A stretch of 62,970 bases of DNA, filler included, from Chrysochromulina tobinii (taxonomy: Eukaryota): NCBI GenBank assembly GCA_001275005.1. It is 7 parts of 7 records of this genome, joined end to end, with 100 filler letters (N's around TTAATTAATTAA, not from the genome) between each part and the next. Parts side by side here need not be neighbours in the genome. Positions count along the whole stretch, not along the records: positions 8,523 to 12,964 come from JWZX01000721.1; 6 more parts are not named here. One strand, written 5' to 3'. The notes under the pieces are model-generated. The model was not told where the DNA came from, searched no databases, and was given only the letters and a program-made list of their open reading frames with translations. The number at the start of each line of letters is the position of its first letter. Position 1 is the stretch's first letter. Position numbers and translations under genes: made by a program. Positions 8,523 to 35,960 of this stretch are shown in pieces.

Positions 8523-10400
8523 CCGTCGCGAGAGTGTGCGAGAGTGACGGACAAATTCCGGTGGCGGCGTTCCACGCCGTCGACCCCGACGGCCGCATCT
8601 GGAGCCCCCTTCAAACCGGTCCGGTTGAGCCATCGCGTGCCTCGAGCCTTCCATGAAACGCGGGGGGTCTCGTTCCGGTGGCGGCTTCACTTTCCGACGA
8701 AACGAGGAGACCCTGCGTCTTTATAATGTGACTTGCACCCGCACCCGGACAGCGGAAACCGCGGACGCCACCAACGGACGCCTCCCATGCAGCCGGGCGG
8801 ATCGGCGGCGGGCGCAGGCCTGCGGCGCACGCCGCAGCCGCGCCGGCATCGGTGCGAGGCAGCAGCGTCTGTGGGTTACGCACACGCACCAGGCGGGGAG
8901 GCAACGATGGCGGGGCGCGGCGCGTGGAGACACGAAATGGCGGGGCGCGGCGCGTGGAGACAATCGCGCCATCGTCGCCTCCCCCGGTTCTGCTCGTACG
9001 CCGTCACCCACATCGCCTTGCAATGCGCCGACGCTTCCTGTTGCTACCGTGCTCGTCGGGGCGGCGTTGGAGACGCCGGCGACATCGAACCTGCGTGCGC
9101 CGACGCGCCCGATGGCGCGCGTCCCCCGTGGGGAACGCAAAGACGCACTCGACACCGTCGCATGACGACGGTGTCGAGCACAAGTGGTGGCTTCCATCGC
9201 CGCCGCCGCCGCCGCCGCCGCCTCTTCCGTGGGCGTCACGCCGCAGGCCGAGGCACCATCTTCGGCGCCGGTTGCGCCGCGCAACGCGCTGCGTCGGCGC
9301 CTTCGCCGCCGCACCTGCACAGCACGCGCGCGCACTCAGCGCCATCGATTCGTGCTGCGGGCACGAGCTGGCCAGAGCTTGAGAGTCCGAGCGCAGCTCC
9401 TCCGTAGAGCGCGCGCGTCAAAACGCACGGCGAAAGGCGCGGGCAGGTCGATGGCGAATGGAGAGATGGTTGGGAGCAGCGCCGTCCGCCGACGCGCCTG
9501 GAGCCGGCCGCAGCGGGGCGCGGAGGCGCGCATCGCGCAAAAGCAAAAAGGTTGGAGGACGGAGCACGAATTAAAGGGGGTCCGAGCCAGTACCCTGAAA
9601 GGCTGCTGCGCTCGCCTTTTTCAGGGTCCCCAGGATAAACGCTTTTCCTATCGCGGAAGAAGAGAGGCAAAACTTGTGAATATTGATGACAATCACAATT
9701 CGGCCAAAGGAACATGTCTGCACTATGGCTCGTGCCTCTGTCTGATTGCCTCTCTGACTGCCCACGTCAAGGTGCGCGATCACAGAGCTATACAAAGGGT
9801 AAATCCACGCGGCGTACTTCGTCCCATCGCCCATCGATCGGACACGCGGCTCGCGGGACGAAGTGTACGGCGCGTCCCATCCATTGGTCCCATCGCCCAT
9901 CGATGTCGCATGTCCGATGTCGCGTGTGTGTAATTATAAATCGCGGACAATACCGCGGACAACTTGGATCGCGGAGTGACTCGCGCGGTCGACCATGCAC
10001 AGAAAGCACGCTCCAGCGTGGTCAGCTCCAGCAAGAGCACAGACCACGCGACCATCAGGTACAGGGCGAGGATTCCGAAGAGCCGATGGGCGAACCATAC
10101 GCCCCACGCCCACTCTGCTTGCGTCACCGGTGCGAGTACACAGCAATCCGCGGCAGCGCAAGCCACCATCGTGCCATTCTCCATGTTTGGGCTCTCTTGT
10201 TAATTAACAGTGAAACAGGACACAGTGAAGACCAGCTACCAAATCTCAGATACGCGCTGGGGAGCGTTAAGCGGGTAAAGGTTAGAGCAACCGGTGATCT
10301 GCGAGCCCACCCGCTCCATGTTTCGTCTTACAAGCAAAGTCTGTGAAATGTCGCATGCGCGGGCGGTCGCGAATCAAAACGATTGTGTGCTTGCTTTTTG

Positions 10401-10923
10401 TCAACCACTGAGTTCAAAATCAGGTGGTGGGGATAGTGTGTGAATCCAGAAAGACTCCCCTACCCCTTTGCGCTTTGGTCAACCACTGAGTTCAAACAAG
10501 GGAGTTCAAAATCAGGTGGTGGGGATAGTGTGTGAATCCAGAAAGAATACCCTCCCCTCCCCTATACCCCTTTGGGTCAACCACTGAGTTCAAAATCAGG
10601 TGGTGGGGATAGTGTGTGAATCCAGAAAGAATACCCTCCCCTACCCCTTTGGGTCAAGTGGACCACATACTAGAACCGAAATCCCGGGCCAATTAGAGGC
10701 TCAGCCAATAGGTACTAACGTTGGCTCGCCCGGGCGACTCTCACCCCGGGACCATAGTTTTACCCAAGGGGGTAGGGGAGGGATTAATATCTGGATTTGC
10801 ACCCCTTCCTCATACCCTGATTACAAACTGAGTGATTTACCCAAGGGGTAGGGGTAAGGGGAGGGATTAATATCTGGATGTGCACCTCCCACTTCCTCAT
10901 ACCCTGATTACAAACTGAGTGAT
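10401..10923. repeat. Three direct ~80-bp units facing two diverged inverted units across a ~100-bp spacer
   Basis: Unit TCAACCACTGAGTTCAAAATCAGGTGGTGGGGATAGTGTGTGAATCCAGAAAG...CCCCTACCCCTTTG at about 10401, 10479 and 10577; reverse-complement-like units at about 10759 and 10836. Confidence 0.88.
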
Positions 10924-11084
10924 ACACGGGCCCCGCTGTGAAGACATGCCCAAGACGACGCACCCCCCCCGCCCGGGCCCACGGGACCGCTTACGGGTCC
11001 CGCAGGGGGGAAACGCCTCAGCCCCCGCTTACGCATACCCGTCATCACACGCAGCATCGCATGTGCATGCTCTTGACTTCCCCA

Positions 11085-11191
11085 CCTGCATGCAAGTGCT
11101 CATCACGACGCCAACGCGATGCTGGACATGCCCTCGACTCCCCCTGCATGCAAGTGCTCACCACGACGCCAATGCGATGCTGGGCATGCCC
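11085..11191 (+). repeat. Two tandem 58-nt-period copies containing the intron cassette core GCATGCAAGTGCTCA(C/T)CACG
   Basis: 11085-11133 and 11143-11191 are near-identical; the core matches the 3' cassettes of the introns at 11611-11700 and 35750-35812. Confidence 0.85.
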
Positions 11192-11342
11192 GATGTAGCC
11201 GCGCCCCGTACGCCACACAGTGCGCGAAAACAGGTCCCAGCCGCAGCTGACCGTCAATCGGGCTACAGGTACAGCTGGACAGCTGTACCGCTACGCAGAC
11301 CCTCAGTCCGTCAGCACCACGGCGCGAGCGGCAGGTAGCCCG

Positions 11343-12828
11343 TCAGCACCACGGCGCGAGCGGCAGGTCGAGCGGCGGCCGCAGGTTGTCGCTGGCGACG
11401 TTGACGTCGATATAGTGCGGCCGCAAGGTGTACGCGTTGACGCTAGGCTGCGGACTCCACTCGAAGGCGCGCACGGTGAAGGTTGAGTACGGCGCGAAGA
11501 GAAACTCGTCCTCGCCGTGCACGGTGCCCATCAGTGCGGTCGATGAAGTTGACGTGGACGCAGCGGCGGTTCGGGGGCAGCGCGCCATCGAGATGGAAGC
11601 GCCAGAGCACCTGTGGGGAGAGGAAGGGGAGGACGCCGTGGTTAGCACTTGCATGCTCGATCTAGGTGGAAGCGCCATCAAGGTGGAAGCGCCATCGCAC
11701 CGGCTCCTGAAAGGGCGGCGACTGCGAGGCGGTCGCGGGCGGCAGCCGCATCAGGAATGTGTGGATCGAGACGTCCTGCTCCACGCTCGTCGCGATGAAC
11801 ATCGGGGCGCGGTACGCCTTGCCCACGGCGAAGAAGCTCTGGAAGCAGCGTGGCATGGCGCCGCCGCGGTACAGGACGTGCTCGCTCGGCCACGGGACGG
11901 GGATGCCGCCCCGGCGCGCGACGCAAAAGGTGTTGATGGCGTGGGTGCAGGTGGCGGCGTGGTCGATGGTGTCCGCGCCGTCTTCGCGTAATGCCTGGTT
12001 GAGCAGCGAGCAGAACTCGCGCCCGCGCAACGTCTCCGCCGACGTCCACAGCCGCACCGCGATGTACATGATCTGATCGGGTCGGAGGATCTCATCGACG
12101 CCGCCCTCGCCGGCCTGCAGGGCCGCCCTGAGGGCGTTGGTGCGCAGCGTCTGGAAGAATCCGACGGCCTCGGAGCGGTCGATGCCCGCGCGCTGGGCGT
12201 GTGCGAGGATGAGGCTGTGCACGGCCGCCTCGAGCTGGAAGCTGCGGGGGGATGCCGAAGGCAAGCGCACGGGCGCACGAGCAGACACACGCGCGCACGA
12301 ATAAGTTACATAGCGCCGCGATCCTAATTAGGGAGCAGGCACGCACGAGCACGAGCATTCTTCTTCTGCGCTCGGGCAATCAGTAGCAATCAGTGGCGCT
12401 CAGTGGCGCTCAGTGGTCATCGGTGCGTACAGCTGGTCGGGTCTGCGCTCGGGCTTGTTGTAGCTCTCCATGAAGCGGGACGTTGCCAGTGACGTTGGTG
12501 GGGGCGTTGGTGTGAACGGGGAAGGTGGTGGGACAGGGCAGGAGATGGCGAGGCTCGCAGCGATAGCTGCAGCAAGCTGAGCGTCTTCTGCCTCATGCTG
12601 CGCATCTGCCGCCGCCTTTGCCGCCGCCGCCTTGTCGGCCGCCACCTTCGTGGCCGCCGCCTTGTCGGCCACCGCCTTGTCGGCCGCCGCCTTGTCGGCC
12701 GCCGCCTTGTCGGCCGCCGCCTTGTCGGCCGCCACCTTCGCGGCCCCGGTCTTGTCCCACCTGTTTCGAAGCGCACGGGGAACGCACGCTGTTGGCGCTG
12801 AGCAGTGGCGCCCATCACGGCGCGTCAT
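11343..12828 (-). CDS. Mono-ADP-ribosyltransferase (R-S-E/ARTC clade) with an upstream ubiquitin-interacting motif; 5' end unresolved, one +1 frameshift near 11528
   Basis: Motifs [43 protein letters not shown]-like [13 protein letters not shown] after (KAAAD)n; introns 12242-12430 and 11611-11700 join the frames. Confidence 0.8.
11611..11700 (-). other. Spliceosomal intron, exon-duplication plus cassette B type
   Basis: GTGCGA...CCCCACAG; its first 29 nt match the downstream exon start at 25/29; removal gives [28 protein letters not shown]. Confidence 0.85.
12242..12430 (-). other. Spliceosomal intron with internal (CCACTGAGCG/CTGATTGC) repeats
   Basis: GTACGC...CCCCCCGCAG; removal gives [12 protein letters not shown] in frame. 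Confidence 0.75.
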
Positions 12829-34086: not shown

Positions 34087-35960
34087 ATGGCACACGACCC
34101 GAGCCGGGCGCGTCCGACGACGAGGTGTTCAAGGATGATGGTGGGCATGTCCCTCGTGTTTGCGATCTCGGCATCGGAGGCGCCGTGCGTGGCGGTCACC
34201 TTCAACCGCTCCACGGAGAGCGTCGATAGCCTGGCGGCGATCGAGCCACAGCACGTGCGAGCGCTCGACGGCACGGCCGCTGCGGGGGCGTGCGCTGCCG
34301 ACACGTCGGCCGGCCACTACGCCGCGGGCGGCGATTGCTTCGACCTAGGCATCGGCGACGCATCGAGCCGCTGGAGGCCGTTGGCATTCATGCCACGCGA
34401 TCTGCGCGCGCCGCATCCGGATGCGCTCAGCCGTGGGCTGCGCCTTCAGGCGGCGCTCGACGAGCTCCAGCATCGCGGCCCGTGTGCAGCTCGGCCCACG
34501 TACACGGTCGCCGAGCTGCCGATGATTGGCACCTGCGCGACCATCGAGTATGCGATGCTCGCCCTGGCGACCGCGGCGAGCAGCGGCTCGCGGCTCATTC
34601 TCGGCCGCCAGTCCACGCCGGTCTGGACGTCCCACTGGCTCTGCGGGGCGGAGCGCTCGTTGGGATGTTACTTCAACGTCTCGGCCGCGTGCTGTCCAGA
34701 TGATGCGAGCTTCAGCGCGTCTTCGAGGGTGGAGGGGGCGGGCGACGCGGCCATGGCCAAGATGCTTCAGCTCAAGGCCGCCGCGCGCGGGCGCAAGCTC
34801 AACCTCAAGGAGAAGATGATGCTGACCAAGCTGAGCAAGGCGGGGCGCGCCGACGCGATGACGTCCAGCCGTGTCGACGAGAAGATGAAACGGCGCCTTC
34901 TCAAGGAGAAGACGGTGCGTGAGAGCGGGCGTGGCAAGCTCGGGCGGCAAGGGGTGCCGCCACGTAGTCGCGAGTGTCTCTGATTGCATGCTGATTGCCT
35001 CCCTCATCAGGTTCGACCGCCACGTAGTCGCGAGCTCGGCACGCTCGAGGGGCACAAGGCTGTCGTGGGCAGCTCGCGCGCGCTTACGCTGGGGGGCTCG
35101 CTCGCCGAGCACAATGAGTATGGAACCCTGTGGGTGAGTGGGCAGCTGGTGCATGGGCTCTTTGAGCAGATGCGGCCTGTCTCTGATTGCATGCTAATTG
35201 CCTCCCTCATCAGGTGAGTGGGCAGCTGGTGCATTGGCTCTTTGAGCAGATGCGGCCTGGCACGCGCGCCCAACTCGACGCCCGACGCGCCGACGTCTTC
35301 CCGCGCGCCGTCGAGTCGGCTGGGTACCGGCACTACCCCGGCACGGCGGGCGGCGCACGCGGCCTCACAATCGGGATGCATGTGCGCCGCGGCGACTCGT
35401 GCGCGCTCGGATCGCGCTTCTGCCCGCGCAACAAGACGGCGGCCTACTTTGAGATGGCGGCGAGATTGCGAGCGCAGTACCCCGCGATGCAACGGCTCGT
35501 GGTCGCGACGGACGATGAGGAGGCGGCCGCGCTCTGTGCGTCACGCGTGCTTGGGTTTGAGTGCATCACGCGAACGATGGATCGGACCCGATTCCAATCG
35601 CAGACCTCGATTGAACGGCGGGTGGTCAAGCACGCTAATGGGCTCCTCTCGGGCGCCACAGTCACGCTCGACGCCCTCGCCGACCTCGAGATGCTCGCCG
35701 ACTGCGACGCGCACGTGCTCGTGTTTCGCTCGGCTCTCTCCCGTCTTGCGTACGCTCTGCAGCATGCCCGCAGCATGCAAGTGCTCACCACGGCGCCCTC
35801 CCCTCCCCACAGGTACGCTCTGTCCACGGCTCGCAAGGGGCGCTTCACGCCGCTCATCTCGGTGCAGTGGCCGTGGGGAGGGATGCCCGGGCCGTCGAGC
35901 TTGGGAGCGGCGCGACCAGCGGCGGCGAAGGTGTATCAAACCTTGAAAGTGGCGATGTGA
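34087..35960 (+). CDS. Alpha-1,6-fucosyltransferase-like (GT23, FUT8/NodZ-related), 4 exons
   Basis: GMHVRRGDSC, LVVATDD and LADLEMLADCD...S..SRLAY motifs; introns 34954-35010, 35134-35213 and 35750-35812 give one continuous frame. Confidence 0.85.
34954..35010 (+). other. Spliceosomal intron, exon-duplication plus cassette A type
   Basis: GTG + an exact 18-nt copy of downstream exon sequence (34957-34974 = 35017-35034) + 36-nt TGTCTCTGATTGCATGCTGATTGCCTCCCTCATCAG; contains an in-frame stop. Confidence 0.88.
35134..35213 (+). other. Spliceosomal intron, exon-duplication plus cassette A type
   Basis: First 46 nt match the downstream exon start at 45/46, then cassette A (35/36 identical to the previous copy); removal restores the frame. 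Confidence 0.9.
35750..35812 (+). other. Spliceosomal intron, exon-duplication plus cassette B type
   Basis: GTACGCTCTG (identical to 35813-35822) ... GCATGCAAGTGCTCACCACGGCGCCCTCCCCTCCCCACAG; removal gives RLAYALST. Confidence 0.82.

Follow-up and report, generated by a model that had tools for sequence, protein, structure and literature searches.

A branch-point cassette shared by introns of unrelated Chrysochromulina genes and its association with exon duplications of variable length

Two cassette copies in a window of Chrysochromulina tobinii DNA

The window analyzed here, a 62,970-nt stretch of the assembly GCA_001275005.1 of the freshwater haptophyte alga Chrysochromulina tobinii in which seven parts of seven records are joined end to end with N spacers, contains two copies of a cassette that we refer to as family B (Table 1). 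Both comprise a 23-nt core, GCATGCAAGTGCT(A/C)ACCACGGCG, at positions 11656-11634 on the minus strand and 35773-35795 on the plus strand, which is followed by a pyrimidine tract and CCCCACAG. Judging from its motif (CTCAC in most core copies, as opposed to CTAAC at 11634-11656) and its distance of 22-34 nt to the AG, the core is predicted to hold the branch point. Shuffled loci yielded no approximate matches to the core, which excludes chance as its origin. In neither window copy do the ends pair with each other or a stable hairpin form (z -0.98 to +1.16). By eye, the two ends (GCATGC.. and ..CACAG) are different, so that terminal direct repeats are lacking as well. The cassette ends in CAG, with no poly(A) or simple-repeat tail, and an Rfam search of the window returned no match.

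Table 1. Positions of cassette copies and associated features in the window
Feature	Position	Strand	Basis
Core-only class: two degenerate cores flanked by diverged direct repeats, tract and AG absent	11088-11110, 11146-11168	+	core match
Family B intron, 90 nt, GT-AG, in ADP-ribosyltransferase-like gene	11611..11700	-	RNA contig, in-frame stop
Exon copy X', 29 nt, gives 5' splice site GTGCGA	11672..11700	-	25/29 identical to 11582-11610
Filler, 15 nt, second partial re-copy of exon copy, ends AGATCGA	11657..11671	-	sequence
23-nt core with predicted branch point CTAAC, A at 11642	11634..11656	-	motif
Pyrimidine tract (23 nt) and 3' splice site ending TCCCCACAG	11611..11633	-	sequence, family logo
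Downstream exon start X, original of the copy, begins GT	11582..11610	-	homologs without insert here
Second family B copy, 63 nt, GT..AG, in frame, stop-free	35750..35812	+	core match
10-nt perfect exon copy of second family B copy	35750-35759	+	sequence
Filler of second family B copy	35760-35772	+	sequence
Core of second family B copy	35773-35795	+	core match
Tract of second family B copy	35796-35812	+	sequence
Family A intron, 96 nt, internal 18-nt exon copy	34915..35010	+	skipped in RNA contig X2 record 11
Family A intron, 80 nt, starts with 46-nt exon copy	35134..35213	+	skipped in RNA contig X2 record 11

The minus-strand copy forms the end of an intron in an ADP-ribosyltransferase (ART)-like gene. 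An RNA contig (run X2, record 18) skips exactly the 90 nt of this intron, with CT..AC ends, and the stretch is retained in the DNA runs X6 and X13; given the in-frame stop that it contains, it must be spliced. The 7-nt suffix of its filler, AGATCGA, is shared with the unrelated site L006. Homologous proteins align without interruption across the intron position, and in a relative with 73% protein identity the insert is absent from all ten aligned members that cover the site, one of which lies on a 16-kb contig. In view of this insert-free relative, the intron position looks to have been gained in this lineage, the alternative being a loss in the relative. The intron is also found in other strains or assemblies (L113, at 96% identity, P0001, P0141 and P0142). 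At position 11527, all four runs are one base shorter than the window, whose exon is off-frame by one, which is probably due to a single-base assembly error.

The assignment of the host gene to the ARTs, made by a previous, sequence-only reading of this DNA, is supported only through a homolog, which has feature look-alikes at 0.96, in clusters with 42-46% Pfam ART; the gene itself has no match to Pfam ART or in the PDB. In one protein with a homologous ART-like domain (P0005), this domain is fused to a SidE-type phosphodiesterase (Pfam PF12252, E 1.7e-36). The ART-like gene (window 10900-12300) has a depth of ~110x in X6, compared with ~42x for single-copy sequence, which suggests two to three paralogs or alleles. 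Downstream of it, at 10394-10900, lie repeated ~72-nt units rich in AGGG/CCCT tracts.

The plus-strand copy is a candidate intron. RNA contigs from runs X2 and X3 continue through its 3' part without splicing, and none of the 15 joints listed out of 33 is a spliced join at 35750-35812, rare forms being lost from contigs in general. Its exon copy falls below the significance cut-off of 12 used for the family as a whole. The earlier statement that both window copies end introns thus holds for 11611-11700, the one family B copy seen in its spliced state, and extends only tentatively to 35750-35812, seen unspliced. Unspliced in-frame copies add a spurious MQVLTTAP-type peptide to predicted proteins. 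The motifs of the surrounding ORF presumably recall alpha-1,6-fucosyltransferases. Nevertheless, Pfam, two homolog searches, a representative library and the PDB returned no match for this ORF, leaving its previous designation as a fucosyltransferase unsupported.

Both cassette-bearing contigs belong to one Chrysochromulina-type genome, as the comparison between them had presupposed: DNA run X6 contains the two of them at matching depth (41.6 for the contig with the intron vs 40.6-43.2), with 0-1 differences from the run contigs over 153-2167 nt. A single-exon gene on the sixth contig of the window falls into a 90%-identity cluster with a Chrysochromulina parva protein. Exact matches to the core were absent from prokaryote genomes. 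Viral contigs gave two matches: a complete cassette at the extreme end of a phage-like contig (L137:3001-3060), likely a chimeric end or mis-join, and a partial match in a coding region, which we read as a chance match.

The exon-copy footprint of family B and related inserts

A scan of metagenome contigs that required an exact 23-mer, and whose sample therefore leans to young copies, returned at least 135 loci; together with the window and one viral locus, these amount to at least 157 copies, nine of which were dropped for short flanks. The cassette thus occupies at least 134 distinct sites in unrelated genes, in line with its proposed sharing between unrelated introns on different contigs. 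Extrapolation from two acceptor-type copies per 62 kb, a sample of n=2 only, gives ~2,000 copies in a genome of 59-66 Mb. An assembly or read artefact, to which the probable single-base error at 11527 and the breaking of contigs at repeats might point, is refuted and has a negligible probability: the same intron is present in independent assemblies (L113 at 96%, X6 and X13) and is spliced out in RNA, and at least 13 sites (13 among the matches listed) recur in more than one record.

Among the matches listed, 100 of the 134 distinct sites are of the acceptor type (tract plus YAG). An upstream copy of the downstream exon, scored as significant at 12 or above, was detected in 76 of these 100 listed sites, compared with 0.9% of 1486 shuffled pairings and with 8/98 in a far-upstream control; in the other 24/100 listed sites, a significant exon copy is absent. 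The sense orientation of the cassette behind an exon copy, first seen in the two window copies, is thereby confirmed. The following values again refer to the matches listed. In 66 of the 76 cases, the first base of the exon copy corresponds to exon base 1. The copy usually supplies the donor GT, and its length, tabulated per copy as had been suggested, spreads continuously from 13 to 67 nt (median 30), with no fixed value. Anchored introns (n=69) measure 55-95 nt. Intron length modulo 3 is flat (27/30/23) and uninformative. The exon after the AG of the acceptor-type sites starts with GT in 81/100 and with GC in 8/100, and positions -3 to -1 read C51/A48/G77%.

In a wider set that allows up to three core mismatches (186 sites, 130 acceptor-type and 56 non-acceptor, among the matches listed), the copies have a median identity of 97% to their exons, with 27/80 being perfect, and 61 of the 103 GT starts conform to GTRNG, compared with 16% of background GTs. 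The logos of exon copy and original are nearly the same, indicating that the target was donor-like beforehand. The sequence shared between sites stops short of the 5' boundary, the 5' 20-50 nt of each intron consisting of a site-specific exon copy. A clean empty allele of an exonic family B copy was not found within the species.

A similar footprint, an exon copy in 7 of 16 introns vs a null of 9%, is present in family A, whose introns end in CCCTCATCAG-like motifs, consistent with the claim that both families follow the same insertion logic. The hexamer GCATGC, by contrast, proposed as a signal common to both, cannot serve as such, as it occurs 58 times in the window and in 4 of the 16 family A introns listed (counted by eye). 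In many family A introns (for example L041, L048 and L084), the interior is taken up by 10-nt CTGATTGCCT-like units arrayed in tandem on the sense strand. L118:170-400 holds a family A intron whose exon copy is 18 nt long and, immediately after it, a family B insert whose copy measures 32 nt; this exon site has been used twice.

Copies that lack an acceptor end also lie within duplications, in 37 of 56 cases vs a null of 13% (wider set, among the matches listed). In a mirror form (L111, L136 and L107), the GT lies in a recurrent 5' arm, and the AG is taken from a copy of the end of the upstream exon. Core-only copies occur at L037:480-600 and L073:470-580, as tandem units of 48 and 54 nt, an in-frame length, in GC-rich coding-like sequence. 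L043 contains, on its minus strand at about 1140-1240, an 18-nt minisatellite amplified from the 13 nt at the 3' end of the core. In the window itself, at 11049-11193, one or both core-only copies are bridged by contigs of X13 and X6, whose joints at 11051-11172 and 11051-11116 have sides of 20-44 nt; this hints at alleles or paralogs with zero, one and two cores.

The footprint could in principle have arisen on old introns, with the core as an extended splicing signal homogenized by gene conversion and the exon copies generated by tandem duplication across acceptors, after which the original 5' half was lost. The branch-point motif in the core, tandem units over acceptors (L013, L023 and L074), the family A and family B inserts at the single site in L118 and the 5/69 exon copies that follow a pyrimidine-rich AG (among the matches listed) would suit such a history, and introns are known to arise where AGGT is duplicated in tandem (PMC3443670). 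We nevertheless consider it very unlikely, given that an AG precedes just 29 of the 69 exon copies among the matches listed, that the copies are near-identical to their exons, that cores are also found in non-acceptor contexts and that the relative with 73% identity has no intron at the window site.

Flanks, joints and a proposed origin of the copies

Some copies share sequence beyond the cassette. L012 and L079, as well as L018 and L132, have identical tracts of 19-20 nt plus 8 nt upstream of the core; the copies in L015, where four lie within about 800 nt, share about 18 nt; and 16 of 130 copies among the matches listed have at least 4 nt in common with the recurrent 5' arm, vs 0.4% in the control. 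These short flanks were likely taken along from a donor intron. At the 5' joints, microhomology adds up to 25 nt over 12 abutting joints vs 6 expected (p=0.00025), with one tandem joint excluded and 9 nt contributed by a single joint.

L012 and L079 adjoin within one gene. More generally, identical tracts were seen in 2 of 42 same-gene pairs vs 5 of 8339 between-locus pairs (among the matches listed, one tandem pair having been dropped by eye), and further clusters are ~13 times denser near copies, with 40 in 64.5 kb of flank vs 3 in 62.4 kb of window, a difference that intron-rich genes and an intron-poor window could also produce. On average, tracts of one gene resemble each other no more than tracts of different genes do (mean similarity 0.286 vs 0.275, p=0.61, among the matches listed), indicating that most neighbouring copies are not siblings. 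The view that the cassette is dispersed rather than locally duplicated is therefore correct as to dispersal, whereas the identical same-gene tracts and the raised density near copies speak against its second half.

The copies are strongly oriented: among the matches listed, 72 vs 6 lie on the same strand as the seed copy, 16 vs 3 non-acceptor copies are in the sense direction, and orientation agrees within loci in 35/36 cases. The 5' edge of the core is sharp, 62 of 80 non-exact copies among the matches listed starting at the first core base, and the last nine bases likewise show high conservation. Tract-similar copies show weak evidence for extra shared exon bases (p 0.02-0.12; 0.08-0.09 for GT starts only); copying beyond the AG into the donor's exon is thus borderline, and we do not count it as support.

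The layout common to these sites is an exon, an exon copy plus cassette and again exon, with duplications of variable length, a single orientation and sibling flanks. We see an even chance that they represent young spliceosomal introns, each produced by copying a section of an existing intron into the joint between the two units of a short tandem exon duplication. The process would be initiated by a strand that breaks or stalls within an exon, 13-67 nt from its start. By means of 2-9 nt of microhomology, this strand could prime on another intron, often of the same gene, at or just before its core, and copy the branch point, tract and CAG of this donor, before rejoining the target further upstream, at a (C)AG|GTRCG-like site similar to the intron-exon joint of the donor. 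The GT of the duplicate would then become the 5' splice site, so that the original mRNA is recovered upon splicing, and every new intron could serve as the next donor. Earlier or shifted returns may yield the core-only copies and the mirror form, with selection keeping those copies that return at a donor-like GT. Since a GT of this kind would stand behind every intron, the joints of donor and target would be alike and the pattern would perpetuate itself. Copy-in at the joint of a tandem duplication offers the simplest account of the varying ends, the flanks, the microhomology, the local donors, the orientation and the lack of a hairpin. The sharp 5' edge of the core and the conserved last nine bases, however, look like ends recognized by an enzyme, and random microhomology does not explain them.

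Such ends might instead belong to a tiny non-autonomous copy-and-paste element of the HUH (Replitron or Helitron) type, with CAG as its precise end, the core as its leaky end and target-site duplications of variable length. The sharp core edge, the conserved TCCCCACAG and the donor-derived flanks agree with this proposal. The cassette shows the combination of a precise end, a fuzzy end of parental flank, variable duplications and a single orientation described for Replitron-1 of Chlamydomonas in the accessible text of PMC10288648, which also reports one Replitron protein recovered from C. tobinii. We still regard an HUH element as unlikely, because neither a hairpin nor terminal direct repeats are present, because 56 of 186 copies (among the matches listed) have no acceptor end, yet mostly lie in duplications, and because of the microhomology at the 5' joints.

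The strong sense bias (72 vs 6 and 16 vs 3, among the matches listed) would also fit the retroposition of excised or unspliced intron RNA by target-primed reverse transcription, in which a non-LTR or Penelope-like reverse transcriptase joins the AG at a nick and stops just past the core, with a second nick 13-67 nt away. Non-LTR insertions combine a fixed 3' end with variable duplications and 5' microhomology. The geometry of the cassette matches this pattern, its acceptor-type copies sharing the variable duplication and fixed 3' end of SINE and non-LTR insertions. Variable duplications at non-LTR insertions are reported in the available part of a Chlamydomonas mutation study (PMC9977147), and a haptophyte introner that co-opts its 5' site and carries its 3' site, Pavlovales fam1, is classed as non-LTR in the accessible text of Gozashti (2025). 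On the other hand, the cassette has no poly(A) or repeat tail and no structural-RNA head (Rfam), and its 5' truncation is sharp instead of graded along the core. Moreover, the copies extend ~14 nt beyond the predicted branch point, where reverse transcriptase would be expected to stall on a lariat, the core-only and mirror forms require other RNA ends, and the donor-like target calls for an extra assumption. Taken together, we judge retroposition to be improbable.

Extending the copy-in reading, it is tempting to speculate that introns are born in a self-propagating chain that needs no transposase. The back half of any existing intron, from branch point to AG, would be copied into a staggered exon break, by preference within a single gene and perhaps with the nascent transcript as template, and each copy placed before a donor-like GT would become both a working intron and the next donor. 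This chain is a tentative possibility; if real, it could account for a large share of the introns of this alga. Introner screens based on similarity would miss such back-half copies because half of every intron is unique.

Comparison with known routes of intron gain

How new spliceosomal introns originate has been asked for a long time, and for most gained introns the source cannot be traced (PMC3443670). The events described here are numerous and likely young, and from each of them the target site, the length of the duplication and in many cases a probable donor can be read off. With Chrysochromulina in culture and assemblies publicly available, empty sites, donors and de novo events are directly testable. 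From the flanking direct repeats, one would further expect introns to be lost precisely and tandem arrays to grow through unequal exchange, and tandem units are indeed seen.

Our search of the openly accessible literature returned no description of family B. Long variable duplications combined with a shared half-intron do not appear in the available parts of Gozashti 2022 and 2025, Roy et al., Craig 2023, Yenerall and Zhou 2012, the Daphnia and Chlamydomonas studies, Mikina 2024 or Fekete 2021. In the accessible portions of the respective texts, C. tobinii and C. parva are named in the list of surveyed genomes only (Gozashti 2022, supplement), and C. tobinii is given zero introner families (Gozashti 2025, PMC12130899). 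The screen behind the latter figure demands similarity up to both intron boundaries, and the similarity among family B introns does not extend that far. This rule would exclude family B, and intron gain by half-copies may therefore be undercounted elsewhere.

In its action, the cassette is comparable to an introner with a borrowed 5' splice site. Assignment to MITEs or other DNA transposons with terminal inverted repeats failed: the two window copies have no such repeats, and the duplication, at 13-67 nt, is not fixed. As far as the accessible descriptions go, the introners of Symbiodinium, Polarella (classes 4/5/6/8/10) and Aureococcus similarly combine an AG from the element with a GT from the duplication, leaving the mRNA unchanged, and their exon starts likewise mirror the donor. 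However, their duplications are fixed at 4 or 8 nt instead of varying between 13 and 67 nt, the Symbiodinium type has terminal inverted repeats that are lacking here, and in family B just the back half of the intron is common to the copies. Classes that take their donor from fixed duplications of 3-8 nt are also described in the available text of Roy et al. (bioRxiv 10.1101/2020.10.14.339549). Introners from a TARA MAG of Chrysochromulina sp. (Gozashti 2022, Fig. 2C, in the part accessible) resemble family B in having no inverted repeats and, by carrying the 5' site and co-opting the 3' site, resemble its mirror form; a 4-bp duplication is reported for them, the comparison being by description only.

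Replitron-1, despite the likeness noted above, differs from the cassette in its length of 0.9-3.6 kb and in its terminal direct repeats and hairpin; it is under-represented in coding sequence (PMC9977147), and the accessible text of neither this study nor PMC10288648 describes the making of introns. Intron gain in Daphnia by tandem genomic duplication or staggered double-strand-break repair, as far as the available text describes it, leaves direct repeats at the intron ends and recruits its donor from duplicated exon sequence, as here. The Daphnia repeats, however, measure 4-12 bp and come with no common cassette in that description, whereas in Chrysochromulina one branch-point cassette recurs at more than 100 sites.
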